Shown in pieces: positions 1,403-60,765 of a DNA stretch of 64,000 nucleotides (position 1 is its first letter; the number at the start of each line of letters is the position of its first letter). The notes under the pieces are model-generated. The model was not told the origin of the DNA. It saw only the letters and a list, made by a program, of their open reading frames with translations, and did not search any database. Position numbers and translations under genes: made by a program. Where the stretch lies: NCBI GenBank assembly GCA_964585425.1, contig CAZPDI010000001.1:4804-68803 (forward strand). The letters are read 5' to 3'. Origin of the DNA: an uncultured Candidatus Saccharibacteria bacterium (GTDB lineage: Bacteria > Patescibacteriota > Saccharimonadia > UBA4664 > CAYXHD01).

Positions 1403-3034
1403 CTAATTATGCGGCATGTGGTCGTAGAGATGCTCCATGCCGTAAGAATGGCGCAGTAGCTTCTTGGTCTGATCGGTGGTGACGCCAATCTTTTTACCGG
1501 GATTCATGATGTTGTGCGGATCAAAGAGCTTTTTAACTTCTACGAATACCTTATACACATCCTGTCCATACAGGTCTTTAAGATAGGGCGCGCGACTCAA
1601 GCCGTCGTTATGTTCACCGCAGGTACTACCGCCAAGACTGATGACCATTTTGTAATACTCATCAGCTAGCTTAAGAACCTTGGTGCGATCTGTGGCTTTA
1701 CTAACATCCATAAAGGGCTGTAAGTGCAGATTAGCGTCGCCGGCATGCCCCCAAACCGCAATATCCAACTTATACTTTTTAAGAAGTTTGTAGGTCCCCT
1801 CTAGGAGCTTCTTAATATTATGGAGCGGCACCACGCCGTCTTCAATGATTGGTAAGGCTTTTTGTTTGCCTTTGTTCATCCAGATTACGGCAGCAGCCGA
1901 GTGACGTATGCGCCAGAGTTGCTGTTGCTCATCTTTTTTAACCGACATGCGGTGACTACGTGCATAGTTTTCGAGTATCCTAATAGCCCGATGAGCTTTG
2001 GTTTGACGCACAACGCTCGAATGATTATCGAACTCACACAACAAGACAATCTTGGGTGTTGGCGAAGGAACTAAACCACGGATCATACTGGGATGGTTCT
2101 TTTGTAAGAACTCCAACAGATTCTTATCGACAAACTCTAGAGCACTAGGCTCGAGCTTAATGAGTTTACGGCACGCCGCGGCCATATGGTCAAGATCATC
2201 AAAAAAGCCAACGAGCAGCGTAGTGTGCGGGTTATAGATAGGCACACTTAATTGAGCCTCGGTAACGATACCAAGCGTACCTTGCGAACCAACGATCATC
2301 GGCGTCAGGTCAAAACTACCGTACTTACCGCGAACGCCCCATAGGTTGTAACCGGCAGCATTTTTGCTGGTATGAGGACGAGCTTTATTAAGTAATGATT
2401 GGTTCTTGGCAATGAGCTCATCGAGCTCTCGGTAGATTTTACCCTCAAGGTTCTGTTGCTGCTTTTTACGAGCCAGTCCAAGCGGTGTAAGGCGTTTCGT
2501 AGTAATGATTTCGCCATTACTGAGCACCACCTGTAGGCTGCGTACATACTCGCGGGTTGATCCGTACTTAATCGTTTTTTCGCCACAAGCATTATTGCCA
2601 ATGGCCCCGCCAATACTACTAAAGTTAATGCTCGATGGATATGGAGGCATAAAGCGATGATGGCTATGAAGCACCCGCTGCAATGATGCATAGTGGACGC
2701 CCGGCTGAACAATCACCAGGTTCTTATCGATTTCTTTAATATGATGCATGTGGGCCGGGAACACCAGGCTCACCCCTTCGCCCAGAGCACCACCAGATTG
2801 ATCGGTGCCGCGGCCACGAGCTGTAATGCCAATGGTTTTGCGCTTACTGCGGGCTTCTTCGTCTAAAATCTTGACCACTTCGCTCACATCCTTGGTACTT
2901 GTAGGGTATACTACCGCCTGAGGTGTTTGGGTAAAAATACTACCATCAACGGCAAAGTAATCACGAATGTTTTGATCGGTAAAAATATCGGCCTTGGTGG
3001 CTTTTTCGATTTTAGTAATAAGTTCTTTGCGCAT
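1403..3034 (-). CDS. FAD-linked oxidase (GlcD / D-lactate dehydrogenase family)
   Basis: 543 aa with an N-terminal FAD-binding PCMH-type region and a C-terminal FAD-oxidase domain. Overall architecture matches GlcD/Dld. Confidence 0.7.
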   Translation of the reverse strand: MRKELITKIEKATKADIFTDQNIRDYFAVDGSIFTQTPQAVVYPTSTKDVSEVVKILDEEARSKRKTIGITARGRGTDQSGGALGEGVSLVFPAHMHHIKEIDKNLVIVQPGVHYASLQRVLHSHHRFMPPYPSSINFSSIGGAIGNNACGEKTIKYGSTREYVRSLQVVLSNGEIITTKRLTPLGLARKKQQQNLEGKIYRELDELIAKNQSLLNKARPHTSKNAAGYNLWGVRGKYGSFDLTPMIVGSQGTLGIVTEAQLSVPIYNPHTTLLVGFFDDLDHMAAACRKLIKLEPSALEFVDKNLLEFLQKNHPSMIRGLVPSPTPKIVLLCEFDNHSSVVRQTKAHRAIRILENYARSHRMSVKKDEQQQLWRIRHSAAAVIWMNKGKQKALPIIEDGVVPLHNIKKLLEGTYKLLKKYKLDIAVWGHAGDANLHLQPFMDVSKATDRTKVLKLADEYYKMVISLGGSTCGEHNDGLSRAPYLKDLYGQDVYKVFVEVKKLFDPHNIMNPGKKIGVTTDQTKKLLRHSYGMEHLYDHMPHN

Positions 3035-3136
3035 ATGCTTATTGTAGCAATTTGGCGACTGTTATGCGACAGTTCAGGGGAACATTTATACGAAAAATCC
3101 TTTGGGATGATCCTTGTTCAAAAAAACACTTTTTTG

Positions 3137-3191
3137 CTTATTGCAACTTTGTGGCATTAAGGGGGTCTTATCGCAACTAATTCGCAATAAG
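3137..3191. promoter_or_regulatory. Pair of 25-bp palindromic operator-like boxes (Fur/Zur-family-like)
   Basis: CTTATTGCAACTTTGTGGCATTAAG followed by CTTATCGCAACTAATTCGCAATAAG. Near-identical boxes occur at 60255-60308 next to the Fur-family gene. Confidence 0.5.
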
Positions 3192-3279
3192 CAAACAAGC
3201 CGTTTTTTAGATAGAACCCCGCCCCAGCCCCTGGCTTAAAGGCAAAAGATATGCTAGAATCTGCTAGTTACCCAACCAC

Positions 3280-3365
3280 GCGCGAGTGGTGGAATGGTAG
3301 ACACGCTGGCTTCAGGTGCCAGTGGGGGCAACCCCGTGGAGGTTCAAGTCCTCTCTCGCGCACCA
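3280..3365 (+). tRNA. tRNA-Leu (anticodon CAG)
   Basis: 7-bp acceptor stem GCGCGAG/CUCGCGC. Anticodon stem-loop CUGGC-UUCAGGU-GCCAG. Long variable arm UGGGGGCAACCCCGUG, T-arm GGUUCAAGUCC, and an encoded CCA end. Confidence 0.8.
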
Positions 3366-9977: not shown

Positions 9978-10011
9978 GACAAAGCCAACCTACTACCCCG
10001 AAAGAGGTCCC
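9978..10011. repeat. 5' box of cassette 1 (GACAAAGCCAAC..CCGAAAGAGGTCCCG)
   Basis: Repeated at 10404-10437 before cassette 2. Its reverse complement is found after each stop codon. Confidence 0.6.
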
Positions 10012-10269
10012 GTGACCAAAATCACGAACCGCAGCATCGCTCCTGCTGGCAGCATCTCCCAGATCGCTCAGCTCCACCAGGACGGAGAGATCGACCGCGA
10101 CCAGACCACTCAGGTGATCGAAGTGGTTGCGGAACATGCCGCAGAGGCGCCAAACACCTGTCCGCGCTGTCAGCGCGCCAACTGCCCAGTGACGAGGGGC
10201 GGCAACTGCCAGTTGCCAGACATGAAGGTGGTGGATCACCTGGTTCGTCAGCTGCAGACCTCCAACTGA
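10012..10269 (+). CDS. High-GC small zinc-ribbon-like protein
   Basis: GTG start 3 nt after AAAGAGG. CPRC-x4-C-x7-C cysteine arrangement. GC3 nearly 100%. Confidence 0.5.
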   Translation: MTKITNRSIAPAGSISQIAQLHQDGEIDRDQTTQVIEVVAEHAAEAPNTCPRCQRANCPVTRGGNCQLPDMKVVDHLVRQLQTSN

Positions 10270-10270
10270 T

Positions 10271-10320
10271 CTCGAGTCGGTCCTATGGGATCGAGGGGCG
10301 ACGAGGCTTGGCTTTGTCAC
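10271..10320. repeat. 3' box of cassette 1 (hairpin GGTCCtatGGGATC plus GGCTTGGCTTTGTCAC)
   Basis: The 11-bp core TTGGCTTTGTC is the reverse complement of GACAAAGCCAA in the 5' box. The extended region is an imperfect inverse of the 5' box. Confidence 0.55.
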
Positions 10321-10335
10321 CCCCTTATAAAATAG

Positions 10336-10364
10336 TTGACTTTACATGATTATTAAAGTATAGT
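10336..10364 (+). promoter_or_regulatory. Predicted sigma70 promoter for cassette 2
   Basis: TTGACT, 17-nt spacer, TATAGT, in an AT-rich spacer. Confidence 0.5.
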
Positions 10365-10403
10365 TATTGTCATGCTTGCATACGAAGTATGCGCGCACCT
10401 TAC

Positions 10404-10437
10404 GACAAAGCCAACAACTACACCGAAAGGGGTCCCG
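10404..10437. repeat. 5' box of cassette 2 (GACAAAGCCAAC..CCGAAAGGGGTCCCG)
   Basis: Copy of the 9978-10011 box, immediately before the ATG. Confidence 0.6.
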
Positions 10438-11169
10438 ATGGGATCTTCTGGAATTCTGGGGTTTCCCAAGGCTGCACACCGCGCCCCCACCATCAGCGAG
10501 GGGTACCAGGAGTACGTCGAGGAGATGACCGGCCTGGCCGTGTGCATGATCTGCGATAGCGGAACATGCCCCGGCGCCAGTGGACGCGCTTGCCCCTATG
10601 AACTCGACGTCTGCACCGTCTGCTGGCAGCTCGACTGCATTAGCGTCTTCGGTCACGACTGCCCTTCGGAGGAACGCTGCAACAACTGCGGTCACCTCCG
10701 GAACGAATTCGGCCATTACAGCAACTGCTCAATGCCCACAATGAAGCTGTGCGACGAGTGCGGGAGCGCAACCTGTCGCGTCAACCCGCCAAAGGAAATG
10801 CGAGAGGAGTACCCGTCGGACTACAATCCGTACTGGGATGACCACCACAGCATCTTCGATACGCTGGGCTGCCTCTTGGGTAGCCCGATCAGCGAGGAAG
10901 AACGGATCGCGGAAGAGATCGCATCGTGTTGGGCTCCGCGCACCGACCAGATGTCCCGAGATCGAGTACGGCAACAGATGCTGAGAACATGGATTGATCG
11001 TGATCTGGACAAAGCAGCTGAGGAAGCTCAGCAGCGCGCCGACCAGATGTCCCAGTCCATGCATCAGCTCACCGAGCTTGCGGACGACTACGACGACGGA
11101 CTGATCTCCGAGAACGTGGTTCTGATGCTCCTCCGGGCTGATCATCGCGGTGTACGGCTCTCCGGGTGA
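10438..11169 (+). CDS. High-GC cysteine-rich (multi-CxxC) protein with an acidic helical C-terminal half
   Basis: Start chosen at ATG 10438 right after the conserved 5' box. The longer 10372 start lies inside the AT-rich promoter. About 18 Cys in the first ~110 aa, in CxxC pairs. GC3 very high. Confidence 0.5.
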   Translation: MGSSGILGFPKAAHRAPTISEGYQEYVEEMTGLAVCMICDSGTCPGASGRACPYELDVCTVCWQLDCISVFGHDCPSEERCNNCGHLRNEFGHYSNCSMPTMKLCDECGSATCRVNPPKEMREEYPSDYNPYWDDHHSIFDTLGCLLGSPISEEERIAEEIASCWAPRTDQMSRDRVRQQMLRTWIDRDLDKAAEEAQQRADQMSQSMHQLTELADDYDDGLISENVVLMLLRADHRGVRLSG

Positions 11170-11209
11170 CCTTTGAGGGTCGGTGAGCGTCAAGGCTTGG
11201 CTTTGTCAC
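11168..11209. repeat. 3' box of cassette 2 (hairpin GACCtttgagGGTC plus GGCTTGGCTTTGTCAC)
   Basis: Same 16-nt core as 10305-10320, inverse of the 5' box. Confidence 0.55.
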
Positions 11210-11275
11210 TCACCTAAGTGTATATACACGATAAATACATTTAGGTGAGTATTATTAAGATAAACACAACTTCTA

Positions 11276-11304
11276 TTGACAAATAGGGTTTAGTTTGCTA
11301 TACT
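11276..11304 (+). promoter_or_regulatory. Predicted sigma70 promoter for cassette 3
   Basis: TTGACA, 17-nt spacer, TATACT. Confidence 0.5.
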
Positions 11305-11365
11305 TATGCGCAATCTGGTGGAACACCCATCCGATAGAACACAGACCACAACCCAAGGAAAGCCC

Positions 11366-12103
11366 ATGTCTCAGCTCGTCATCGTCCAGGGCCCCAAGCC
11401 CCGCACGTCCGCGGTGTCCGACAAGGATGCCCACAACCTCCGCCTCCAGGCGGACAAGGTGCTGGCCAGGCACCGCGGTGATCTCCCCCAGGAGATCGTC
11501 ACGCAGCTGACCAGCCCGATGCCCGGCATCGTGGGCATGGGACTGCACGACGCGGCCTCCTGGATCAAGCAGCGCACCGCCAACCTCAAGCTGCAGTACG
11601 TGCAGCAGCACCCCGACTGCGAGGCGGCCATGGCCCTCAAGACCCGAGTCGACAACGTCCTCAACGGCGAGTTCGGCGACAAGGTCAAAAAGAGCCTCGA
11701 CATGCGTGGTCAGCGCATCCTCGAGCTGGACCTGTACCAGATCTTGAGCACCGACCAGCTGAAGAGCTTCGCCCACTTCGTCAAGAAGGCCGAGGCAGTC
11801 GAGGGTCGCTTGCAGACCGAGAAGGCACGCAAGGCGGTGCCGGCCCAATCGCTCCAGATGCTGTTCCCGTCCAAGGAGAAGCGCGAGCGCAAGCCGAAGA
11901 AGGTCAAGCCGGCCTACGCCGGTCTCCCCGCACCGTCCACCGGGATCGTCACCGACTGGAAGAGCGACGTCGGCAGCGTCGGTGCCCCGAACCCCCAGGG
12001 TCCGGCGCCGGCACGCGGCGTCACCCTCCGCAAGTCCGACAAGGCTCGCGCCAAGGGAGTGAAGGGTGGTGGCGTCAAGACCCGTCCGGGGCGACGCAAC
12101 TGA
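11366..12103 (+). CDS. High-GC hypothetical protein with a lysine/arginine-rich C-terminal tail
   Basis: AAGGAAAG RBS. GC3 about 95% in this frame. The antisense ORF 11273..12130 is rejected as a GC artefact. C-terminal tail reads KEKRERKPKKVK...KARAKGVKGGGVKTRPGRRN. Confidence 0.5.
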   Translation: MSQLVIVQGPKPRTSAVSDKDAHNLRLQADKVLARHRGDLPQEIVTQLTSPMPGIVGMGLHDAASWIKQRTANLKLQYVQQHPDCEAAMALKTRVDNVLNGEFGDKVKKSLDMRGQRILELDLYQILSTDQLKSFAHFVKKAEAVEGRLQTEKARKAVPAQSLQMLFPSKEKRERKPKKVKPAYAGLPAPSTGIVTDWKSDVGSVGAPNPQGPAPARGVTLRKSDKARAKGVKGGGVKTRPGRRN

Positions 12104-15941: not shown

Positions 15942-17921
15942 CTATCTCCTTTTGGCTTTCTTTAATTCTTTTAAATCGGCAATTTGATCGCGCAACGCAG
16001 CAGCTTTTTCGAACTGTAAATTTTCTGCCGCAAGATCCATTTGAGCGGTCAGTTCTTTAATAAGGCGACCACGCTCTTCCTGAGGTATTTCTTTAGTGTT
16101 GAGCTTTTGAATATCTTCGACCTCAGCTTCTTTTTCGGCCTGCATACGTTCGGCCAATGCCTTCTTGATTCCAGCTGGCGTGATGCCATGCTCTTTATTA
16201 TAAGCCTCTTGTCGCTCACGACGTTCACGAGTAGTGGTGATGGCTCGGTCCATAGATCCGGTAATGTTATCGGCATACATAATTACGCGACCTTCGACGT
16301 GACGTGCCGCACGCCCCATGGTCTGGATCAAGGCTGATTCACTACGCAGGAAACCTTCTTTATCGGCATCCATAATAGCGACGAGTGACACTTCGGGCAG
16401 ATCAAGCCCTTCTCGGAGAAGGTTAATACCGACTAGGACGTCGTATACGCCTAGTCGCAGATCATGAAGAATATCAGTTCGATCCAAGGTATGTACTTCG
16501 CTGTGGAGGTACTGAACTTTAATACCTGCTTCTTTGAGGTACTCGGTTAAATCCTCGGCCATGCGCTTAGTAAGGGTAGTCACTAATACGCGCTCGTGTT
16601 TGGCGATTGTGTCGCGGATCTCGCCCATAAGGTCATCAATCTGGCCTTTGATTGGGCGGACATCGATTATCGGATCAAGAAGGCCGGTGGGGCGAATTTC
16701 TTGCTTGGCGATTTGTTTACTGACGCTCAGTTCGTAATCACTAGGCGTGGCCGATACATAGATAGCCTTGTTGATATGACGATCGAATTCGGCAAAGTTC
16801 AGTGGGCGGTTATCCAGGGCACTGGGCAGGCGGAAGCCATAATCAACCAAGGTAGTTTTACGAGCCCGATCACCATTAAACATACCGCGGACCTGCGGAA
16901 TCGTGATGTGACTTTCATCCACAAACATTAAAAAGTCGTCCGGGAAATAATCGAGCAAAGTTGCTGGCTGCTCACCGGCTTCGCGATCGCTTAAGTAACG
17001 CGAGTAGTTTTCGATACCACTCACAAAGCCAGTTTGCTCCAGCATCTCCACATCAAAATTAGTGCGCTGTTCAATGCGCTGGGCTTCGATCAGTTTACCT
17101 TCTTGTTTGAACTTAGCAACTTGAATCTCGAGATCAGCCTTAATATTGGTAATGGCATTACGCAGCTTTTCCTGGGGCGTTACAAAGTGTTTACCCGGAA
17201 AGACCTTGAGGTTATCGAGCTTCTTAACTACTTCGCCGGTGAGGGGGTCAACTTGTTTGATGTCGTCAACTTCATCGCCGAAGAACTCGACGCGATAAGC
17301 TGTTTCCTCGCCAATCGGAAAAATGTCGACATTGTCGCCACGTACGCGGAAGGTACCACGATGAAAGTCGGTATCGTTGCGCGTATATTGAATATCCGTC
17401 AGTTGGCGGAGCATTTTGTCACGCTTACGGGCAGTCCCTTTTTGGATATCCATGGTTAGAGCGGTATAGTCGGCTACATTTCCTAGACCATAAATACAAC
17501 TCACACTGGCGATAATAATGACATCCTTACGAGTCAACAAGCTCATGGTTGCGGCGTGACGCAGTCGATCAATTTCTTCGTTAATCGACGAATCTTTTTC
17601 GATAAAGGTATCACTACGAGCAATGTACGCTTCCGGCTGGTAGTAATCGTAGTAGCTCACAAAGTACTGTACAGCGTTATCTGGGAAGAATTGCTTAAAT
17701 TCGCTATACAGTTGGGCTGCCAATGTTTTATTGTGACACAGGACCAACGTGGGCTTTTGTTGATCTTGAATAATATTAGCCATCGTAAACGTCTTACCCG
17801 AGCCAGTTACACCGAGTAAGGTTTGGTCGCGATAATTCTTTTGCAAACCATCTACCAGCTCGCCGATCGCTCGGGGCTGATCACCAGTCGGTTTGTAATC
17901 ACTTTTAAGGGTAAACTTCAT
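15942..17921 (-). CDS. uvrB: Excinuclease ABC subunit B
   Basis: 659 aa. Helicase motifs (GVTGSGKT), a beta-hairpin region and a C-terminal UVR domain. Confidence 0.95.
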
Positions 17922-39977: not shown

Positions 39978-40006
39978 TTGCATTATGTCGCAAAATATGA
40001 TTAAAT
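39978..40006 (+). promoter_or_regulatory. Predicted promoter of module 1
   Basis: TTGCAT, 17-nt spacer, TTAAAT. The TGATTAAAT block recurs in the 40688 promoter. Confidence 0.35.
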
Positions 40007-40040
40007 AGTATGGTTCTGCTACCTATCCCTAAGGATTCCA

Positions 40041-40415
40041 ATGAATGCACCTGCCCGTCCCATGCCCGACATCACCGATGTGGAGCTGACCAAGAAGATC
40101 ATCGATGAACGTGTGAAGCACCACAACCTGCGCCATGAAGATGGTGAAGCGATCTGGATGGTAGTCACGGCCATCGGTCATGCCATCAAGATCGGTGATC
40201 CTCAGTACAGCCCGATGATCGACCGCAACGTCACGGGGCTGCGCAACGAGGCGAGGCCAGGCGAAGTTCCGGTCATCTTGCTGTCCGACCTGAACCGCAT
40301 CTTCTGTGACGACACGTTGATACGCGAGCTGCAGCGGGTGTTCCCGAGCATCGTCAATGATGCGGCGCGCGTTGCCTGCTGGAAGTTCCGCAACTGCATG
40401 TACGGATGCGACTGA
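40041..40415 (+). CDS. High-GC hypothetical protein (124 aa), module 1 gene A
   Basis: TAAGGAT RBS. GC3 high. No family recognised. Confidence 0.45.
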   Translation: MNAPARPMPDITDVELTKKIIDERVKHHNLRHEDGEAIWMVVTAIGHAIKIGDPQYSPMIDRNVTGLRNEARPGEVPVILLSDLNRIFCDDTLIRELQRVFPSIVNDAARVACWKFRNCMYGCD

Positions 40416-40417
40416 TC

Positions 40418-40627
40418 ATGCGCCTTCGGATCCCCTGGCGCAAGCAAACCGTGCCGCCGCCACCCGCGACTGTCGCGATGAAGGCTGCGCCCCTGGTGCC
40501 GCCACCTCATCGCCGGATGACGGCCGAAGAACGCGCTGCGTGCTGCCAAGATCAGAGGAAGATCAAGCTGCGTGCTGCCAAGCGTTGTCGGCGCAAGGCC
40601 CGAAAGCGCCGACTGCGCAACAAGTAA
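40418..40627 (+). CDS. Pro-rich/basic small protein, paralog 1 (alternative start 40406)
   Basis: GACTGATCATG junction with the upstream gene is conserved in paralog 42234..42467. Differences between the paralogs are often synonymous in this frame. Confidence 0.5.
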   Translation: MRLRIPWRKQTVPPPPATVAMKAAPLVPPPHRRMTAEERAACCQDQRKIKLRAAKRCRRKARKRRLRNK

Positions 40628-40645
40628 CCCCCGTGAGGCGGATCG

Positions 40646-40680
40646 CCGAAAGGTCCCTCTTGCGGGGGATCTTTCGTTAT
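40646..40680 (+). terminator. Family hairpin GAAAGGTCCC-tcttgcg-GGGGATCTTTC plus GTTAT
   Basis: 9-bp stem including G-U pairs, with a U-rich tail. Confidence 0.5.
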
Positions 40681-40687
40681 GGTGATA

Positions 40688-40716
40688 TTGATTTATACCT
40701 GTAAATGTGATTAAAT
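40688..40716 (+). promoter_or_regulatory. Predicted promoter of unit 2
   Basis: TTGATT, 17-nt spacer, TTAAAT. AAAGGAGAG RBS follows. Confidence 0.35.
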
Positions 40717-40750
40717 TTCCCTATTCCGTTTCGAGTCCAAAGGAGAGACC

Positions 40751-40984
40751 ATGACGGACGCACATGCCACGGCCGTCTCCACGGTCTATTTTTGGCTCGA
40801 GTACGAGTTGGGTATCGATAATCCTGATCACGTTGAACTGACCATGATTATCGAGAATGGCTGGCTGCGCTATCGGTGCCCGGCCCACGACATCACCCCG
40901 CTTGAAATCGCCCGCCTCGAAGCTGCCTGCCGGCACCACGCCCATTCTCTTGAAGTGCACCTGAACCTGGAGGTTCAATCATGA
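40751..40984 (+). CDS. High-GC small hypothetical protein (77 aa)
   Basis: AAGGAGAG RBS. ATGA overlap with the next gene. Confidence 0.4.
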   Translation: MTDAHATAVSTVYFWLEYELGIDNPDHVELTMIIENGWLRYRCPAHDITPLEIARLEAACRHHAHSLEVHLNLEVQS

Positions 40985-41733
40985 TTGTCCACAAGCACGA
41001 CATCGATACCGCAGCTCGTCTGGCCGCCAAAGAGCGGTTCATGAACGAGTCATGGCTGGATGATCGCAAGGTGCGATCATGGTTCGCTTGGCTCGGTATC
41101 CGTCCTGACGGTCATCAAGCATTGCGCATCTTGCGCGCTGTGCATGCCACGGCTGCCACCGTGCGTGAGTACAAGATCCACCATCGCCACACGCGCTTCG
41201 GTCGAACGATGCGCCTGCAGCGCCGGCTCCCACCGTGGCCCGCCAAGTACGCGGATACCCCGGTCATCAATGCCGCGCAGATGCTGCTGGTGACTCAGCG
41301 CACGGACTACATCCACCTCACGGAGCTGACGCGACCAATTACGGGTACCAGTTATCGGCACGGCGACAATCGACGCGTCGATATGGAAACGTGCAAGATG
41401 TTCCTGGAGAACGTGCAGAGCAAGTTCATGCGCGAAGCCGTTTGGTCAGATGAGTTGGTATGTATCGAGAGCTTTGCGCGGCTCGGCCTGACGCCCGATG
41501 AGCTGCTGGTGGCCGAGATGGCTCTGATCCGTCTGATGAGTAGGTATCGGCACGAAAAGGGGCTTACCTGGTATCTGATGCCGACCTATGGCAGCCGGAG
41601 CCGCCGCTTGCACACCCTCACCATGGGTGATTTCTTGAACATCACCCGATTTCTCCAACCCAACTATGGCGACACCGACATGGAGTTTCTCATGACGCTG
41701 GCCGATCGTCTGCGTTCGCGACTTGCGACCTGA
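40981..41733 (+). CDS. High-GC hypothetical protein (250 aa)
   Basis: GC3 high. Translationally coupled to the preceding ORF. No family recognised. Confidence 0.45.
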   Translation: MIVHKHDIDTAARLAAKERFMNESWLDDRKVRSWFAWLGIRPDGHQALRILRAVHATAATVREYKIHHRHTRFGRTMRLQRRLPPWPAKYADTPVINAAQMLLVTQRTDYIHLTELTRPITGTSYRHGDNRRVDMETCKMFLENVQSKFMREAVWSDELVCIESFARLGLTPDELLVAEMALIRLMSRYRHEKGLTWYLMPTYGSRSRRLHTLTMGDFLNITRFLQPNYGDTDMEFLMTLADRLRSRLAT

Positions 41734-41764
41734 TCTCGACACATACCCTCGCGGGGGCTTTTCT

Positions 41765-41798
41765 ACGGAAAGGTCCCTGCGGGGGATCTTTCGTTTAT
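41765..41798 (+). terminator. Family hairpin ACGGAAAGGTCCC-TGCGG-GGGATCTTTCG plus TTTAT
   Basis: Near-identical copy at 42492-42525. Confidence 0.55.
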
Positions 41799-41801
41799 AG
41801 C

Positions 41802-41830
41802 TTGCAATATCAATACTTTAAATGTATAAT
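41802..41830 (+). promoter_or_regulatory. Predicted sigma70 promoter of module 2
   Basis: TTGCAA, 17-nt spacer, TATAAT. AAGGAG RBS at 41849. Confidence 0.5.
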
Positions 41831-41859
41831 TTGTAAATCCGTACGACCAAGGAGTACCC

Positions 41860-42231
41860 TTGACCGAAGCCAATACCCTACCCAAGGCCGATGCCAGCGT
41901 CAAGCTGTCCGACGACATCATCGCAAGCTGCTACGAGGGCTGCGATCCCCGTGAGTCCGATCGAGCTCGCGGCTGCATCGCCGCCCTCAAGGACCTGCTA
42001 CGGCTCGCCGAGAAGACGCCGAACGACGCGCGCTACCAGGAGATCCGGGAGTTCGACGCCGACACCCTGACCGTTGGCCAGTTCATCACCCTGATGTACC
42101 TGCCGGCGATGTCGCCGAATCAGCCCCGCCAGCTGATGCGCAACGTGCGTAGCAACTGGGGGCGACTCAACCAGCGAGTTCTCATCGAGCTGCGAGACAA
42201 GCTGGATGAGCGCTACGAGCCCCAGGACTGA
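41860..42231 (+). CDS. High-GC hypothetical protein (123 aa), module 2 gene A
   Basis: TTG start 6 nt after AAGGAG. GC3 high. Not similar to 40041..40415. Confidence 0.45.
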   Translation: MTEANTLPKADASVKLSDDIIASCYEGCDPRESDRARGCIAALKDLLRLAEKTPNDARYQEIREFDADTLTVGQFITLMYLPAMSPNQPRQLMRNVRSNWGRLNQRVLIELRDKLDERYEPQD

Positions 42232-49188: not shown

Positions 49189-50709
49189 TTAGCTAAACAA
49201 ACTCGGTTGCGTGCCGGCAGTTCCCCTGGTTATTTCATCGAGCACTTCGTAAATGCGCACCATGGCCAAGGTATCGAGCGCACAATAGACCAGCAAATCA
49301 TCGAAAACCTTTTGCGCCTCATCGGCCGGCATGTCGCCAAACACCGCACGCATGTATGAACCTTGGGCATCACCACCATTTTGAATACCAAGTTCTTTAT
49401 AGCTTAAATCAGGTGCCAACACTGGTAGGACATTTTTAATACTGGCACTGCCCATAAAACGGGAGTCAACATAGAGCTGTTGCTGGAAGGGATCGATGAG
49501 ATCAACCACACGAGCATTTAGATCAAGCAAGAAGTCGGCGTGCTCCGGGAACATCTCGGCCATTTCGCTGTGGCGCCCGCATTCGAACGCTTTATACCAT
49601 ACGGCGATACTACCAGTAGGGCCAATATCGCGCTTGAGCTGCTCAATGAGTGGCGGCATGGGATTACTCTGCTCCGTCCATAAAAATTCGGTGTGACGCA
49701 ACTCTTGGCCCGGCGCATCAAGAATATGCAAACTGTACTGCATAGGAATTTGCTGATACGGCTTGGTGCCGTCGTATAGTGGCACCGCATCGGCCGCCGT
49801 TTCGTAATCTAAAAAGTAAATTGGGAATTGGATGGTTTGCATAAATTTAGCGATGGCTGGGGCGTCGATGCGCACCTCTCCACTCTTGGTGGTAGCGATT
49901 TGCATTTGCTGAGCCGGCGCCAGCGTACTAATAATCTCCGCGGGTACGTCTTGGATTTTAGTAACTCCGGCGGCCTCCAGCTGCTCAATAAGTTTTGGAT
50001 TCAACCGAGCGAGATTAAGGATGCTGTCAGTCGGCACTTCGCCTTTGAGTTTCTTGTAAATAGGCATCCAATCAAAATAGCCACCATAACTTGCCAGTCG
50101 CGGTGACAAGCTTGGACAATCCGGACTTAGAATCACGTCAAAGGCTTCTTGGACTTTAGCGTCCATGGCCAACATTGTATTATGTACGTCATCAGTCACA
50201 TCGGTGATGCTAGTGAGAGCCATAACATCGATATCACCATTCCGCACATACTGACCATTAACATGGACCACGGCAGTTTTGCGCACCCGATAGCCGCAAG
50301 CCTCTATGGTACGCTTTTGGAATGCCAGATCCCAGGTGTGATCCGGCTTGGCTTTGGTACTAACTTTAATTTCATAAATATCAAACTCATCACCGCCGAC
50401 GCGAACCATGACATCGGTTAAGCAAGCCGTGTTATCAGGCGCCGTGAATTTGGCCTGAAATAATGTTTGAGCGCCAGTCGCCAATAAACGCGCCGTGACT
50501 CGATCCTTTTCGAAGTAATCACCAGTGATGCGTTGACCATCACTAAACAGTTGCTCGGCAAGAGCTTCGAAGCGAAAGCCCATATCAAAAAGAGCTTGGG
50601 TATTAGCATCAATCGGCGGCAGCTTATTGGGCTCAAACTTTTTAAGCCACAACCAAGCCGGGTGTTTTAAAAATACCATAAAGTCAGATTTAGAAAGTTG
50701 ACGTGCCAT
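49189..50709 (-). CDS. DUF2779-like predicted nuclease (PD-(D/E)xK plus RNase-H-like exonuclease domains)
   Basis: DIYEIKVSTK (D..E.K motif). C-terminal FLDYETA...CALDTLAMVRIYEVL. Confidence 0.5.
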   Translation of the reverse strand: MARQLSKSDFMVFLKHPAWLWLKKFEPNKLPPIDANTQALFDMGFRFEALAEQLFSDGQRITGDYFEKDRVTARLLATGAQTLFQAKFTAPDNTACLTDVMVRVGGDEFDIYEIKVSTKAKPDHTWDLAFQKRTIEACGYRVRKTAVVHVNGQYVRNGDIDVMALTSITDVTDDVHNTMLAMDAKVQEAFDVILSPDCPSLSPRLASYGGYFDWMPIYKKLKGEVPTDSILNLARLNPKLIEQLEAAGVTKIQDVPAEIISTLAPAQQMQIATTKSGEVRIDAPAIAKFMQTIQFPIYFLDYETAADAVPLYDGTKPYQQIPMQYSLHILDAPGQELRHTEFLWTEQSNPMPPLIEQLKRDIGPTGSIAVWYKAFECGRHSEMAEMFPEHADFLLDLNARVVDLIDPFQQQLYVDSRFMGSASIKNVLPVLAPDLSYKELGIQNGGDAQGSYMRAVFGDMPADEAQKVFDDLLVYCALDTLAMVRIYEVLDEITRGTAGTQPSLFS

Positions 50710-50789
50710 GTTATTAGTATAGCAGTGGGAGCACCTAGGTTAAAAACAACTTTTCTGGTTATTGCGACTAATTCGCAGTAAGTAAAAAT

Positions 50790-51470
50790 CTACTTTTTTA
50801 GAGTCCTCTGGAACAAACGATGCCAGCGCCAAAACGCACCAATACCCTTAATGGTGGTAGCCGTATGATTACCAACATTGTAGCGATGCACCTTCATGCC
50901 AGGTAAAGCCGTAATAAGTAACTCGGTATTAGTAGGCGGAATAACAGTGTCTTTTTGTGAATAGATCAGATACACCGGACGCCCATCAAGCAACCCCATA
51001 TCTTTGAGCGGTTCGACCGGACTTAGCTCTTGTGAAAGCTGCGTGAAATCATAACCATTCTTTGTATATGCTGGTTTAAAAGATTTGCCGGCCGGGCTCT
51101 TCCAGATAAATCGCGCAATTGAACCACGAGCTGTCACTAAGGCGGCGGCTCGCAATTGTGGCGTATGCTTGAGCGCGTACAGTGCACTCTCGGAGCCTAA
51201 CGAGTTCCCCATCGTGTAGGACGGAATATCTTTTGGCAAGGTTGCAAGCGTAGCGGCGATATCGCGCTGAACAGCCTCAATCTGCCCAACGTAGGCCATA
51301 ATGTTAGAGGATACTACCGTTTGCGAATCCAGCACATAGGCATAGACTCGGTAGCCGAGCAGTCGCATCATCCAGTAGGCTGGCAGATAGGTGCCAATCC
51401 TCGTACGGTAGCCACCGATAAAAAAGATGACGCGACGCCTGGACAAACCAAACTGGCGCCGCTCAAACAT
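50790..51470 (-). CDS. Alpha/beta hydrolase
   Basis: GNSLG nucleophile elbow. Confidence 0.45.
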   Translation of the reverse strand: MFERRQFGLSRRRVIFFIGGYRTRIGTYLPAYWMMRLLGYRVYAYVLDSQTVVSSNIMAYVGQIEAVQRDIAATLATLPKDIPSYTMGNSLGSESALYALKHTPQLRAAALVTARGSIARFIWKSPAGKSFKPAYTKNGYDFTQLSQELSPVEPLKDMGLLDGRPVYLIYSQKDTVIPPTNTELLITALPGMKVHRYNVGNHTATTIKGIGAFWRWHRLFQRTLKK

Positions 51471-53136: not shown

Positions 53137-53586
53137 TTATTTACAGTCTTTGTCGGCGCCACAACTGTGAGCCAACTTTTTGAGCAGCACCAAGAGCTCG
53201 GTAATGTCTTGGTCACTTAAACCGGCCAGTAACTCTACAATGTGACCGTGTGCAGCCAATCGCAAACCCTCGACCTTCTTTTTACCGGCTACCGTTAAAC
53301 GCACATCGACGACTCGACGGTCCTCGGTTGAAGCCTCACGACTCACAAGCTCCATTTGTACCAAACCTTCGGTTAGCTGGGTAGCGGCACTGCTGCTAAT
53401 ACCCAACAGCTCGGCCATCAGCTTAATGGTAGCTGACTCGCGGCAACTCAAAAGATGCAGGGCTTCGGCTTGAGGGCGGCTCAAGCCTTGCGACGCTGCC
53501 GAGCTAGCCTTAATCGGCAGCACCTGGCGTTGCACCATGGCCATGACTTGCATGTATTCTTTTACGAGTTCTTCGCGCTTGGTCAT
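53137..53586 (-). CDS. MarR-family transcriptional regulator
   Basis: Winged HTH. Directly upstream of the MFS pump. Confidence 0.75.
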   Translation of the reverse strand: MTKREELVKEYMQVMAMVQRQVLPIKASSAASQGLSRPQAEALHLLSCRESATIKLMAELLGISSSAATQLTEGLVQMELVSREASTEDRRVVDVRLTVAGKKKVEGLRLAAHGHIVELLAGLSDQDITELLVLLKKLAHSCGADKDCK

Positions 53587-54582: not shown

Positions 54583-54641
54583 AACAAATCCTTTTCTTGC
54601 TTTATAGCGCTATTATACATCTATTTTCATAAATTGCGAGC

Positions 54642-55827: not shown

Positions 55828-55871
55828 TCCATAACCATTACTATACACTATTATTCATAAATTGCGAGCGT

Positions 55872-55923: not shown

Positions 55924-56583
55924 TCAGGCTGCGAGTAACTGGACCCAGCCACCCTCGTACTGCGGGTTGACCTCATCGCGGTAGTGGGCACCGTGACCCA
56001 GCGCACCATCGACAACAATGGGCTTGCCAGCTTCACAGAGCGGACAAGCTTCGGCGTCGTAGGACGCGAAGTCCACGTGCGTCAGCTGCTCCAACCGGGG
56101 AACTCCGATGGCGTCAGCCTCCACACCGCCTCGGTTGCAGACGGCACTGATGCCGATCACCTCACCACCACAGGCTTCGATGGCCGCGCAGGTGCCCTGA
56201 ACCGAACTGCCAGTGGTCAGCAGATCCTCGATCACGAGAACGCGTTTGTTCTGCAGGTGCTGCGGGAAGCTCAGGCGATCGACCACGAAGTTGTTGCCCT
56301 CCTTGTCGGCCCACAGGCCAGGCACACGAAGACCCTTCTTGTGCAGTAGCCAGTTCGAGGCAGTGCTGGTGAGCGCCACGCCACCGGTTGCCGGTGATGC
56401 GACAACATCGAAACCGCCGTCGAATGGTCTGAGGAGATCCGAGACGATCTGGCTGAGCATCACTGGATCAGCGAAGATCGGGTCCATGCAGATGTAGCCC
56501 TCACCGTGTCCACCCTTCTTGTACACGAAGTGGTTGTCGAGAAAGACGGCTCCGACCTTCTGGAGGTACTCGAGAATGTCCAT
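55924..56583 (-). CDS. pyrE: Orotate phosphoribosyltransferase
   Basis: Start taken at MDILEY (TAGGAACG RBS). PRPP-binding motif VLVIEDLLTTGSS. High GC. Confidence 0.7.
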   Translation of the reverse strand: MDILEYLQKVGAVFLDNHFVYKKGGHGEGYICMDPIFADPVMLSQIVSDLLRPFDGGFDVVASPATGGVALTSTASNWLLHKKGLRVPGLWADKEGNNFVVDRLSFPQHLQNKRVLVIEDLLTTGSSVQGTCAAIEACGGEVIGISAVCNRGGVEADAIGVPRLEQLTHVDFASYDAEACPLCEAGKPIVVDGALGHGAHYRDEVNPQYEGGWVQLLAA

Positions 56584-56666
56584 GTGCGTTCCTAACGTGA
56601 GACGAATGCGCCAACTGGTCACATCCGAATTATTATCCTATTCATAAAAGTTATTTACAAGCATAA

Positions 56667-56734
56667 GTGTGTCGCCGGACGGGTGGGCAAAAAGTTTACA
56701 GTCCGAAGACCTTCTTCCTCCTCGCCCACCCGTC
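56667..56734 (-). terminator. Long-loop hairpin downstream of pyrF
   Basis: GGACGGGTGGGC ... GCCCACCCGTCC 12-bp arms. Confidence 0.35.
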
Positions 56735-56742
56735 CGAGCATG

Positions 56743-57675
56743 TCAGGCCGCCAGGCGAACTCGCTCGATGGTCTCGTGCATGTTGGAGGCCTCAGCTTCC
56801 GACGCCTCAGCCGGAGCCAGACCCTCGTACTGCTGGTTGTCGTGAGCATGGGTGATGCCGCTCGAGGAGTTGATGGCGATGCCAGCCTGCTGGCTGTTGT
56901 GTCCGTTCTGGTAGGCGGCTGCAGCGTCACCGCCCTGCTTGTTTCCTACCCCAGGGATCAGGATCGGAACCTGCTCGCCAACACAACGACGAACGTTGGC
57001 AAGGTCGTCGATGGACTCGGGACTTGCGCCGGCCACCACACCGACGTTGCCTCGCTTGTTCCAGCCCTCCAGGCTGGCGACGTTCTGTGCGACTCGCTCG
57101 TACAGGAAGCCCTCCATAGTCACGCCCATGAGGGTTGACGAGCAGGTATCAAGCTTCTGGAACTCCTCGGCGCCAGGGTTGGATGTACGAGTCAGTACGA
57201 AGACCCCCTTGTCGCCACGGTCCAGCCACGGGGCCATGGCCTGTGCACCCATGTAGTTGTGGACGGTGACTGCATCAGCTCCGCAGACGTCGTAGGCGAA
57301 CGAGGCGTAGGTGTCATTGGTCGCTCCGATGTCGCCGGCCTTGAGGTCAAGGATCTTGACGACATCTGGCGCGTGGGTACGCATGTGCTTGAAGAGCAAC
57401 TCCAATGCCTGGATGCCTTCATGGCCATGCTTGAGGTAGAACCCCAAGTTGGGTTTCATCCAGCCGACTTTGCCGGCCAGGGCCTCGACGATCGGGAACA
57501 AGAAGGTGGTGAGCGTACCGCAGATGCTGGCCCGCTGGAAGCCCTCCGGGATGCGTGTGATCACCGGATCATCCTCGCGATAGGTGCTCTTGAGCGTTGG
57601 GTCGAGACCGGCGCAGACTGCACGGTGCTGCCCGGCGTTCAAGGCCACGAGCTCCGAAAAGCTGAGGTCGGACAT
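56743..57675 (-). CDS. pyrF: Orotidine-5'-phosphate decarboxylase, type 2 (long form)
   Basis: Start taken at MSDLSF after GGAGAGGAG. VCAGLDP and DLKAGDIGATN (type-2 D.K.GDIG.T motif). High GC. Confidence 0.7.
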   Translation of the reverse strand: MSDLSFSELVALNAGQHRAVCAGLDPTLKSTYREDDPVITRIPEGFQRASICGTLTTFLFPIVEALAGKVGWMKPNLGFYLKHGHEGIQALELLFKHMRTHAPDVVKILDLKAGDIGATNDTYASFAYDVCGADAVTVHNYMGAQAMAPWLDRGDKGVFVLTRTSNPGAEEFQKLDTCSSTLMGVTMEGFLYERVAQNVASLEGWNKRGNVGVVAGASPESIDDLANVRRCVGEQVPILIPGVGNKQGGDAAAAYQNGHNSQQAGIAINSSSGITHAHDNQQYEGLAPAEASEAEASNMHETIERVRLAA

Positions 57676-57778
57676 GTCAGACTCCTCTCCCATCTGACGA
57701 TGAGATAGATTCGTGCGACCGAATTAGCCACATCCATATTAGTATGGTTTCTGGGACGCTTAAGAGCAAGCGTAAGAG

Positions 57779-58597
57779 TTATTTACTGCGCAACCGTGCG
57801 ATGACAAAGCGAGCGAGGAAGTAAATGAGGAAGCTAAGGAATGTTACAAAAACACTTGGCTTAATAGTTCCGCTGGCTAAGCTCAGGAGTACACCCCCAG
57901 CTCCGGCAACGAAGGCAAAGCCAACGGAAAGACTAGCGACCATGGCGGGTCTGGCCGATAAACGCATAGCGGCAGCGGCTGGTGTAATGGCTAAACTTAA
58001 GACGAGTAGGGTGCCGACGATTTGGGCCGCGGCAGTTACGGTCAGCGCCAAGAGGATCAAGAACGCTATACCAAGCGCACGAACTGGCACGCCACGAGCA
58101 GCGGCGACCTGCGGGTCAATCGAAGCAAACTGTAATGGTCGATACATAATAATGAGGCCCACGATGACGAGCACACAAATTCCTATTAAGAATCCGAGTT
58201 GCGTGGCACTTACGCCATATACATTACCAAAGAGGATGTTGGTCGCCGCGGTGGCGAAGCCACGATAATAACTCAGGAACAACACGCCAAGCCCAAGCCC
58301 AAAGGCCAAGATGACGCCAATGGATGAATCACGTTCTTTTTCACGCACGCCAAGTAAACCGATTGATACGGCGACGATAAGTGCGCCAATAATTGAGCCA
58401 AGCGGCGCATTATTGAGGAACAATAGTCCGGCGGCCGCACCAGTAAAGGCCAGTTCGCTAATGCCATGCACCGCAAACGCCATGCTGCGACGAATCACAA
58501 AAGGGCCCACCAGACCACAAATCATGGCAATGATGGTTGCCGCCAATAAAGCGTGTTGCGCAAAGGGCTGACCTAAATAGAATAGGAAGTTATTCAT
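57779..58597 (-). CDS. Metal (Zn/Mn) ABC transporter permease (ABC-3 / ZnuB-TroCD family)
   Basis: Start taken at MNNFLF, which overlaps the ATPase stop. About 8 TM helices. Confidence 0.7.
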   Translation of the reverse strand: MNNFLFYLGQPFAQHALLAATIIAMICGLVGPFVIRRSMAFAVHGISELAFTGAAAGLLFLNNAPLGSIIGALIVAVSIGLLGVREKERDSSIGVILAFGLGLGVLFLSYYRGFATAATNILFGNVYGVSATQLGFLIGICVLVIVGLIIMYRPLQFASIDPQVAAARGVPVRALGIAFLILLALTVTAAAQIVGTLLVLSLAITPAAAAMRLSARPAMVASLSVGFAFVAGAGGVLLSLASGTIKPSVFVTFLSFLIYFLARFVIARLRSK

Positions 58598-59330
58598 GAT
58601 GCCCTCCCAGTGCCTCGGCGTGTAAACTATCTTCGGCGCCAAGCACCACCATGCGACCGTGGATATTGAGCACTTCGACGGGTGAGCCATACAGCTTACT
58701 CAGGGTCTTAGTTGTCAGGATTTCCTCAGGCGTGCCTAGCAACCACTTCTGCCCCACTAAATATAAAACCTTATCAACCATTGGCAGAATCGGATTAATG
58801 TCGTGCGTCACAAATACCACCGCCGTATTATGTTTGGTACGACGTTCATTAATGAGATTGCTGACGATTTGCTGTTGCGTTAAATCGAGCGAAAGCAGCG
58901 GCTCGTCACATAGCAAAATACTTGGATCTTCAACTAAGGCCTGGGCCACACGCAATCGCTGTTGCTGACCACCACTCAGGGTGCCGAGCGGTTTGTGCGC
59001 AAACTCTTCGGCACCGACGGCTTTAATTGCCTTATCGACGGCCGTCTTCTTGCCTAAGCCTACACCATACTTATGGCCATCTAAACCAAATCGCACTAAG
59101 TCGTAGCCGCGAATGGCGGTGTCATCATCAAAGCCACGGTGCTGCGGAATGTAGCCAATACACTGATCGGCGTGATTTTCTAACAGGCGTTTTAACAAGC
59201 TCGTCTTGCCCGACCCGTTTGGCCCCAGCACCACCAAAAACTCACCGGGCTCTATATTAAGATTAAGATTTTGCCAAAGCTTATGCTCGCCAAATTGCAA
59301 GCTAACGTTCTTTAAGGAAATGAGACTCAT
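58590..59330 (-). CDS. Metal ABC transporter ATP-binding protein
   Basis: Walker A GPNGSGKTS, signature LSGGQQQR, Walker B LLCDEP. Confidence 0.85.
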   Translation of the reverse strand: MSLISLKNVSLQFGEHKLWQNLNLNIEPGEFLVVLGPNGSGKTSLLKRLLENHADQCIGYIPQHRGFDDDTAIRGYDLVRFGLDGHKYGVGLGKKTAVDKAIKAVGAEEFAHKPLGTLSGGQQQRLRVAQALVEDPSILLCDEPLLSLDLTQQQIVSNLINERRTKHNTAVVFVTHDINPILPMVDKVLYLVGQKWLLGTPEEILTTKTLSKLYGSPVEVLNIHGRMVVLGAEDSLHAEALGGHHE

Positions 59331-60244
59331 AATGCCCCTAGTATGGCACTAAGTTGTTGCATTTGCCAGGTCTGAAAGTTCTTAACCTTGGGAATCGTTT
59401 CGCTGACCCCTACTACCGCTACGCCGGCTTGCTGGGCAGTCTTTTGCAACTGCTCCGTGACATCATTTACCGCCTGATTGTTATAGAGGAGTACTTTTAC
59501 CTGCCCCGACTTTAATACTGCTTCGAATGCTTGTATTTGCTGTGGGGTTGGCTCACTGCCGTTTTCGACCGATTGCGAAAAGCCAGTCGGAGTTTTGTCG
59601 GTCAAACCAAGATCCTCGATCAAATAGCCGGCCACTCGTTCGGTATAGGCCACGCCGCCATTCACCTGAGTAATTTTGCTGGTTAATTTTTGCATATCGG
59701 CAATAAAGTTTTGAGTGTTTGCCTTATAGCTGATCTCGTGCTCTGGGTCAATTGCAATCAGGTCATTCTGGATGGCTAAGGCCACCTCCTGGATGCGCGG
59801 CAGATCATACCAGAGATGCGGGTTATCATCCTGGTTGGATTTAAGAACTTCGCTGACATTGAGTATTGTTTTATCATTTTGTGGAGCCGCCTCTAAGAGC
59901 TTGTCCATAAACTCGTCGTAGCCCAGACCATTAACTATGATGAGCTGGGCAGATCCTAGCTGCGAGGCAGTTTTAGCGTCGGACTCAAATAAGTGCGGAT
60001 CAGCTTCGGGGTCGCTTAATATAGAAGTAACTTCGACATGCTCGCCACCTACCTGGGCCGCAATATCACCCCAAACGTTGGTGCTCGCAACGATTTGAAC
60101 TTTATTACTATCGTGCGCAACTTGATTCTTTGACTGCAAATATACCACCCCCCATATAAAGAATAGGGCCGATATAAGCATGGCGGCGCCGAGAGCAAAT
60201 GTTCGTTTTTTCGATATATGTGACATGTCTTTAAAATAAAACAC
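59327..60244 (-). CDS. Metal ABC transporter substrate-binding protein (TroA/ZnuA cluster-9 family)
   Basis: N-terminal TM/signal region. TroA-like fold length. ATGA overlap with the ATPase. Confidence 0.7.
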   Translation of the reverse strand: MFYFKDMSHISKKRTFALGAAMLISALFFIWGVVYLQSKNQVAHDSNKVQIVASTNVWGDIAAQVGGEHVEVTSILSDPEADPHLFESDAKTASQLGSAQLIIVNGLGYDEFMDKLLEAAPQNDKTILNVSEVLKSNQDDNPHLWYDLPRIQEVALAIQNDLIAIDPEHEISYKANTQNFIADMQKLTSKITQVNGGVAYTERVAGYLIEDLGLTDKTPTGFSQSVENGSEPTPQQIQAFEAVLKSGQVKVLLYNNQAVNDVTEQLQKTAQQAGVAVVGVSETIPKVKNFQTWQMQQLSAILGAL

Positions 60245-60254
60245 CTTTTTGCTT

Positions 60255-60308
60255 ATTGCAAATTTGTCGCATTAGTGATATCTTATTGCAACAAAGTCGC
60301 ATTAACGA
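60255..60308. promoter_or_regulatory. Pair of palindromic operator-like boxes in the divergent intergenic region
   Basis: CTTATTGCAAATTTGTCGCATTAG and CTTATTGCAACAAAGTCGCATTAA. Consensus CTTATTGCAAnnnnGTnGCATTA is shared with 3137-3191. Confidence 0.5.
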
Positions 60309-60321
60309 AAGATTAATAAAA

Positions 60322-60765
60322 ATGAAGTCGGACCTACACGTCTACCTCTTAAATCATAAAAAACGCTTAACTCCCTCTAAGGAGCTCGTTTTTGAGCTAC
60401 TCAATAATCACCAGGCAATTACAATCAATGAGCTCTATTCCAAAGTTTCGAAGCAGATGGACAGGGCGACCATGTACCGTATCCTGCAACAATTTTATGA
60501 GCTTAAAGTTATTAAGGACGTAGTTATAAATGGCGTACGCAAGATTGAGTTAGCCGACTACTTTAACAGCCATCACCATCATTTAATTTGCGGCAGATGT
60601 GGCAACGTAGTAAACATTAACGACATGAAACTTGAGCAATACCTTAAGCGGCTTGCTCTCGTTAATAAATTTGTGCATGTATCACATAGTTTTGAAATTG
60701 TCGGTCTATGCCCCACTTGCCGACCACAACCTACCGCTGACTTGCCTTGGGCGGGCGTAGAATAA
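60322..60765 (+). CDS. Fur-family metal-responsive regulator (likely Zur)
   Basis: Start taken at MKSDLH. HHHLICGRCG and CPTC metal-site motifs. Winged helix. Confidence 0.7.
   Translation: MKSDLHVYLLNHKKRLTPSKELVFELLNNHQAITINELYSKVSKQMDRATMYRILQQFYELKVIKDVVINGVRKIELADYFNSHHHHLICGRCGNVVNINDMKLEQYLKRLALVNKFVHVSHSFEIVGLCPTCRPQPTADLPWAGVE

Follow-up and report, generated by a model that had tools for sequence, protein, structure and literature searches.

The window, as the whole 64-kb stretch of DNA analyzed here will be called, includes a gene for a FAD-linked D-2-hydroxyacid dehydrogenase/oxidase (1403..3034, minus strand; 543 aa, PF01565 + PF02913) and a gene for tRNA-Leu(CAG) (3280..3365, plus strand), with a spacer between them (locus A) that contains two 25-bp imperfect palindromes: Box A1 (3137..3161; CTTATTGCAACTTTGTGGCATTAAG; 33.4 bits) and Box A2 (3167..3191; CTTATCGCAACTAATTCGCAATAAG; 33.5 bits), each with 9 of 12 symmetric pairs. 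Both genes are transcribed away from the boxes. The initial annotation placed these 25-mers exactly, but gave their spacing as ~6 bp; they are 30 bp apart start to start, leaving a gap of 5 bp. With its flanks, the whole locus-A module runs from 3120 to 3208: a 17-nt A-run/T-run flank, a box, the 5-bp spacer, a second box, and an inverted flank. No credible ORF was found in the locus-A spacer (all are <80 aa, and most have TTG starts or overlap the oxidase or tRNA genes), and an Rfam search matched only the tRNA.

Extended -10 sequences for both flanking genes were read by eye: TGCTACAAT for the oxidase (3041..3049, minus strand), 6 nt before the ATG, for which a strict consensus scanner made no call, and TGCTAGAAT for tRNA-Leu (3252..3260, plus strand). 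In every relative, with boxes or without, the oxidase has the TAnAAT hexamer at the same distance from the ATG, although the TG motif is not always kept. The tRNA-Leu extended -10 is likewise kept, with minor variation, in genus-level relatives of both kinds; the L063 spacer differs. With the -10 just 6 nt before the ATG, the oxidase mRNA looks leaderless. The promoters of the oxidase, tRNA-Leu, and a DUF2779 gene described below (50716-50724, minus strand) all look like extended -10 promoters (TGnTAnnnT), and the placement of the oxidase and DUF2779 start codons 6 nt past the -10 suggests that leaderless mRNAs are common in this organism.

A near-identical second pair of boxes is indeed present elsewhere in the window, as originally claimed, although ~3 nt from the position first given (60255-60308): Box B1 is at 60252..60276 and Box B2 at 60282..60306 (locus B), again 30 bp start to start. 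The conserved region, put at ~70 bp in the initial annotation, measures 76 nt (3120-3195 vs. 60235-60310) at 80% identity, beyond which loci A and B are unrelated; the flank AAAACAC(T/C)TTTTTGCTTATT matches at both, also as claimed. A consensus scan allowing up to three mismatches returned four matches, the A and B boxes, against none in 100 shuffles, and a weight-matrix scan of the 64 kb found five boxes at 29–34 bits and no other site above 11 bits. Chance recurrence of the boxes is excluded. Only the full 25-mer suffices for discrimination from background: the loose core pattern alone, with one mismatch, had 10 matches vs. 4.4 expected, which is not significant.

Dyad symmetry in the five window boxes ranges from 6 to 9 of 12 pairs, and reaches 12 of 12 in the related genome L002. 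The A boxes (9/12 each) do not fall short of the B boxes (6/12 and 8/12) in symmetry. The two flanks of module A are reverse complements of each other, which makes the whole an 89-nt imperfect palindrome, with arms of 42 nt each (3120-3161 and 3167-3208) that are 76% complementary. It also folds well as a single strand (z-scores of -4.1 and -6.3), while the folds of modules B and C (the latter described below) are not significant. The symmetric A/T-tract flanks of module A have DNA bending, extended contacts, or copy history as candidate roles.

Locus B lies between a gene for a Fur-family regulator (60322..60765, plus strand; 147 aa, PF01475), the presumed binder of the boxes, and a divergent metal ABC importer operon (57779..60226, minus strand) encoding a ZnuA-family binding protein (59327-60226), an ABC ATPase (58590-59330), and an ABC-3 permease (57779-58690). 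By eye, the TTGCAA within Box B1 (60256-60261) probably serves both divergent promoters as a -35. For the regulator gene, reading rightwards, it is followed after 17 nt by TATCTT (60279-60284), so that Box B2 covers the likely -10 and transcript start; for the importer, it is followed after 17 nt by TATTTT (60233-60238 on the plus strand), then 6 nt, then the ATG. These promoters are kept in L002, L008, and L009; they match just 8 of 12 consensus positions, which is why the strict promoter scanner is silent here. Four genomes conserve the TTGCAA, 17 nt, TAnnTT pattern read for the regulator gene, and three relatives have -10 equivalents in the same place (TACCTT, TACACT, TATATT). L002, L008, L009, and L014 all have the box pair itself in their ZnuA/Fur spacer, with the 30-bp phasing unchanged. 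Boxes covering the likely -35, spacer, and -10 in this way have the classic layout for metal-dependent repression and autoregulation, which is the likely arrangement at this locus.

The fifth box stands alone. Box C (50758..50782; GTTATTGCGACTAATTCGCAGTAAG; 32.7 bits) is flanked on one side by the stop codon of a hydrolase gene (50790-51470, minus strand) and on the other by a DUF2779/UU173-like gene (49189..50709, minus strand; 506 aa), its center being ~61 bp upstream of the start of the latter. The DUF2779 promoter (TTAACC-16-TATACT) is the sole one called by the strict scanner. Box C shares its 5′ flank with both pairs and its 3′ flank with locus A; it looks like a pair minus one 30-bp unit, and the multiple alignment agrees. 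It has orthologues in L002, L008, and L014. The DUF2779 gene is the most widely kept target after the transporter/regulator pair. L002 also has a weaker box-like site (17022-17046; CTTATTGACTATAATAGACAGTATG; 15.6 bits by that genome's own matrix) directly upstream of a 151-aa ORF, which may be a further regulon member in that genome. At 10418-11975 it has heliorhodopsin and short-chain dehydrogenase genes between its Fur-family and DUF1295 genes, which the window does not have at that place.

From their sequence and distribution, the boxes are very probably operators, and the best candidate to bind them is the Fur-family regulator encoded at 60322-60765, which matches PF01475 (E = 4.7e-18). 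The core TTGCAA-N5-TYGCAA is found within 150 nt upstream of 16 of 17 regulator homologues from Saccharibacteria and Patescibacteria, although their neighboring genes differ, usually between a -35 and a TATAAT-like -10. These homologues are 25–56% identical; the genome-collection scan gave L014 as the only close relative, the rest being 24–39% identical. Elsewhere in the 266 kb searched there are only four other matches, one of them the locus-C site of L014. Autoregulation typically leaves this kind of trace, a motif that tracks the gene of the regulator. At two distant Saccharibacteria loci a second match to the core is found at or just past the 3′ end of the Fur-family gene (L022, ~2932; L028, ~10337).

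Box sequence varies between related genomes, but is matched among the loci inside each of them; there are at least three flavors among genomes whose housekeeping proteins are 85–90% identical. In the genome represented by contig k141_609583 (L002 + L010), the box sequence is CTTAATGACAAT-A-ATTGTCATTAAG. The 7-1-7 core of these boxes, TGACAAT-A-ATTGTCA, departs by one base in each half-site from the classical Fur consensus, AATGATAATnATTATCATT (as quoted in PMC1698941). The locus-A box of this genome is identical to its own locus-B box at 24 of 25 positions, and to its window orthologue at 14 of 25. Another flavor, TAATGAGAAT-A-ATTCCCATTA, is found in L061. The regulator and the binding protein diverge faster than most of their syntenic neighbors: identity to relatives is 56–70% for the regulator and 63–75% for the binding protein, against 87–93% for the ATPase, 82–89% for the permease, 91% for UvrC, and 89% for the oxidase. 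Its predicted recognition helix is RATMYRILQQF in the window and EATLYRTIRQF in the TGACAAT-type genome; that the helix differs where the boxes differ is suggestive, as a single contrast. Taken with the inverted repeats over the likely regulator and transporter promoters and the association of the motif with regulator homologues, this co-variation argues for the putative Fur-family control of the box pair that was originally proposed, and the locus-A site very probably binds the same protein.

The Zur alternative in that proposal fared less well. The regulator scores far under the cut-offs of all curated (NCBIfam) Fur, Zur, PerR, and Irr models. The Zur model NF008646 gives 32 bits vs. a 167-bit cut-off, with Fur and PerR models scoring higher, and matches to Zur, Fur, and PerR structures in the PDB are all near 1e-11, that is, equally distant. 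The label was therefore rejected, and the gene should not be annotated as Zur. The protein has a CxxC…CxxC pair and an invariant His run. Near this run, it has Tyr or Phe where the alignment with Mycobacterium tuberculosis Zur has a Cys that we take to have a role in zinc sensing. In the importer binding protein, DPH and NPH motifs are present, and the Glu of ..YTERVAGY.. aligns with that of ..TSEGAFKY.. in Staphylococcus aureus MntC, presumably the Mn-type third ligand (Glu189), a position held by His in zinc-type binding proteins; a fourth ligand was not placed by the alignment. Its best NCBIfam match is AztC, far under cut-off. With low certainty, these features suggest that the metal sensed is more likely to be Mn or Fe than Zn.

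The window boxes resemble known Fur-family operators (Fur, Zur, PerR, and Mur boxes, 7-1-7 inverted repeats) in being inverted repeats, often in tandem, and, at locus B, in lying over the likely -35/-10 of a metal ABC importer gene and of the regulator's own gene. They differ in their core (TTGCrA-N5-TyGCAA), in belonging with a regulator outside the curated subfamilies, in the marked shift of box flavor within one genus, and in the position of module A, far from any promoter. Mur, the manganese-responsive Fur homologue controlling sitABCD/mntH in alpha-proteobacteria, is likewise a Fur-family protein linked in some species to a metal ABC importer gene, with a ~19 bp palindromic operator (PMC1698941); the Mn-type Glu aligned at the third ligand position of the window binding protein adds to the likeness, but the window organism belongs to an unrelated phylum. 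As in Zur regulons (znuABC and zinc-independent paralogues), a ZnuA-family (PF01297) importer adjoins a Fur-family gene; however, there are no zinc-independent paralogue genes near the window boxes, and the oxidase is predicted to be metal-using.

This prediction comes from comparison with FAD-linked D-2-hydroxyacid dehydrogenases (LDHD, D2HGDH, GlcD, LctD), with which the window oxidase shares FAD_binding_4 and FAD-oxidase_C domains and a His-His-Glu triad, although it is longer (543 aa) and falls below all equivalog cut-offs. Among solved structures, it is closest to LctD, glycolate oxidase, and mouse LDHD. In the mouse enzyme, His398, His405, and Glu442 coordinate Mn2+ and His443 is catalytic (PMC10589216). 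The corresponding residues are all conserved here, in the motifs GHAGDANLH (429-437) and GEHNDG (473-478, containing the Glu-His), which align with GHVGDGNFH and GEH of LDHD. The oxidase thereby shows the combination typical of metal-dependent members of this group, a VAO-type FAD domain and a C-terminal domain with a His-x6-His…Glu-His site for metal and substrate. Related D2HGDH enzymes are reported to need Zn2+. The oxidase is accordingly predicted to need Mn2+ or Zn2+. Since the Mn/Zn triad is kept, it looks like a metal user and not a metal-independent substitute, contrary to the metal-independent paralogue role that the initial annotation had raised as a point to check; a metal user would be more in keeping with metal sparing or metal-replete activation than with classical Zur paralogue logic.

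Whether module A controls the oxidase is a separate matter from what binds it. The box centers are at ~-115/-145 from the oxidase start and ~-88/-118 from the tRNA start; the boxes overlap neither promoter, and there is no recognizable promoter beneath them. The promoter-like hexamers of locus B are degraded at locus A (GGTCTT for TATCTT, TTTTGA for TATTTT). In four genomes, the distance from the boxes to the oxidase ATG is 102, 85, 109, and 76 nt, showing no helical phasing, and their distance to the tRNA promoter also varies.

The oxidase/tRNA-Leu spacer could be compared in eight close genomes, including the window. Boxes are present in four (the window, L010, L012/L013, and L061), each in its own genome's flavor, and absent from three (L011, L056-059, and L060), where the spacer is just ~25–55 nt and the oxidase and tRNA keep their own promoters; readable states are limited, as several of the short-read L056-L060 assemblies break inside tRNA-Leu(CAG), ~110–160 nt upstream of the oxidase. 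The eighth, L062, has no boxes, but at ~2200-2440 in the same spacer there is a different palindrome, TTAACCATTTGGTTAA, with a partial copy ~77 bp away; this spacer may be used by a different regulator. L063 (59% identical) has the oxidase/tRNA adjacency without boxes. A DNA-pattern scan of metagenomes with the oxidase promoter and start gave one match, in L055, which is unrelated and due to chance. Outside the boxes the spacer is not conserved among relatives. A neighbor-joining tree of the oxidase requires at least two gain/loss events, although as a single-gene tree it is not robust. Judging from these genomes, the locus-A site is lineage-restricted and, since relatives manage without it, the module looks dispensable.

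The claim that the oxidase belongs to the same regulon thus stands in part. The boxes are kept in three other relatives, but they overlap no promoter, lie at a varying distance from the gene, and are absent from three of eight relatives. Control of the oxidase by the boxes is putative, partly supported by these comparisons, and the gene should not be annotated as an established regulon member. The secure part of the predicted regulon is DUF2779 together with the two divergent units of locus B, the metal importer and the regulator gene.

On balance, we lean toward interpreting the box pair at 3137-3191 as a tandem operator for the regulator encoded at 60322-60765, with the oxidase its most likely target. 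One dimer would bind each 25-bp imperfect palindrome (core TTGCrA-N5-TyGCAA), and with 30-bp phasing two dimers would come to lie on about the same side of the helix. The window regulon would then comprise locus B (regulator gene and importer), locus C (DUF2779, with its box near -61), and the oxidase/tRNA-Leu module at locus A. The last would have arisen as a copy of an existing module, as the sharing of flanks outside the boxes indicates, and would later have been kept matched to the changing specificity of the regulator, which argues that the regulator still binds it. The level of the oxidase would in this way be coupled to metal supply, a sensible arrangement for an enzyme predicted to need Mn2+ or Zn2+. 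What is observed are the features of the sequence, how they are conserved, and how they co-vary; from these we infer that the regulator binds, which metal it senses, which gene it targets, and in which direction it acts.

Other explanations differ mainly in what they make of the isolation of module A. It could be a neutral or decoy copy, still binding the regulator or kept by gene conversion, with no change in expression of its neighbors. The placement of the boxes off both promoters, the degraded locus-B hexamers, and flanks beyond the boxes that are common within a genome would all be expected of such a copy, as would absence of the module from three of eight close relatives and the two or more gain/loss events in the single-gene tree. 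Yet the A boxes equal or exceed the B boxes in symmetry and have tracked the change of flavor in four genomes, as neutrally decaying sequences would not unless gene conversion were frequent, and on these grounds we regard a decoy as unlikely, though deserving some weight. It is more doubtful still that the module controls tRNA-Leu(CAG) instead of the oxidase. The boxes are somewhat nearer to the tRNA promoter (~-88/-118) than to that of the oxidase, and in the window they are oriented to the tRNA as the B boxes are to the regulator gene, but this is still too far for promoter occlusion, and the tRNA promoter is unchanged in box-less genus-level relatives. No tRNA gene controlled by metal is known to us.

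Two further readings would remove the regulator from the picture altogether, and both seem very improbable. The modules might be MITE- or REP-like, copies of some short palindromic element that is mobile or repetitive, and not protein-binding operators; in favor of this, the inverted flanks of module A make it an 89-nt imperfect palindrome, it folds well single-stranded, and it is present in some relatives and absent in others. The 64 kb, however, hold just three such loci, each of them upstream of a gene and in a promoter region; four to five genomes have loci B and C in orthologous places; comparison of filled and empty sites reveals neither a clean insertion boundary nor a target duplication, the rest of the filled spacer not being conserved; and the core motif follows regulator homologues across the phylum. 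The boxes might instead be bound by another regulator, for example the MarR-family protein encoded at 53137-53586 in the conserved block between loci C and B, or act as RNA hairpins or terminators, as palindromes flanked by T-runs can form hairpins. The first of these is scarcely compatible with a motif tied to the Fur-family gene at 16 of 17 distant loci with differing neighbors. As to the second, at both A and B transcription of the neighboring genes leads away from the boxes, where a terminator would have no transcript to end, and a terminator or RNA-structure reading was rejected from gene orientation; in addition, the scanner calls no terminators at the modules, the folds of modules B and C are not significant, and the tRNA is the only Rfam match.

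The operator interpretation does not exclude duplication, which the initial annotation had set against it in the form of a mobile fragment with more extensive similarity. A 17-nt flank, AAAAAAACACTTTTTTG, is common to modules A, B, and C in the window, and the 3′ flank of A and C is its reverse complement. The k141_609583 genome has other flanks, yet its A and C modules share theirs (CC…CGATGG). Copying or gene conversion accounts better than any conserved function for flanks that differ between genomes and agree within them, and the sharing within a genome could reflect these processes, not selection for binding. The suspicion of copying was in this respect apt, since the flanks outside the boxes are shared; the mobile part was not, as similarity ends at 76 nt and no mobile-element machinery is evident. 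No mobile-element features were found at the modules: there are no defined ends or target duplications, only three copies, and no transposase evident beside them. Module A is likely to be an operator module that spread by copying, and so both a duplicated fragment and a regulatory site.

A more ambitious scheme can be sketched for the genus as a whole, though we think it rather improbable in full. A fast-evolving regulator and its operators would change specificity together, and palindromic operator cassettes of ~60–90 nt, each a box between two flanks, copied into intergenic spacers, would recruit new regulon members; the oxidase/tRNA-Leu copy would act from a distance, by activation or metal sparing, on a Mn/Zn flavoenzyme or even on a tRNA gene.

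The names on homologues and related genome records place the organism in the Saccharibacteria (Patescibacteria). Gene regulation in these and other Patescibacteria is hardly known; they have very few regulators and are mostly uncultivated. A literature search found no described Fur regulon for Saccharibacteria. The kind of system is well known, and the novelty is modest, lying in the phylum, the TTGCAA-type motif, and the apparent rapid joint drift with module copying. The comparisons attach a motif, TTGCAA-N5-TYGCAA, to a clade of Fur-family regulators found throughout the phylum. They also yield a minimal predicted regulon of metal importer, regulator, and DUF2779 gene, plus a variable site in the oxidase/tRNA spacer, and what may be a compact case, in nature, of joint drift in a regulator and the operators it binds while operator modules spread by copying.

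Some other features of the window were seen in passing. There are GC-rich patches at 10000-12000, 40000-42000, and 56000-58000 (0.58–0.59 vs. ~0.47–0.49 elsewhere). The patch at 40–42.5 kb has internal direct repeats, and that at 56–58 kb includes an OMP-decarboxylase-like gene only 32–50% identical to its relatives, against 82–93% for its neighbors. Finally, a 31-nt direct repeat, TATTATACATCTATTTTCATAAATTGCGAGC, occurs at 54611-54641 and 55839-55869, with 81% identity between copies 1228 nt apart; it may be a repeated promoter or operator of the neighboring genes.
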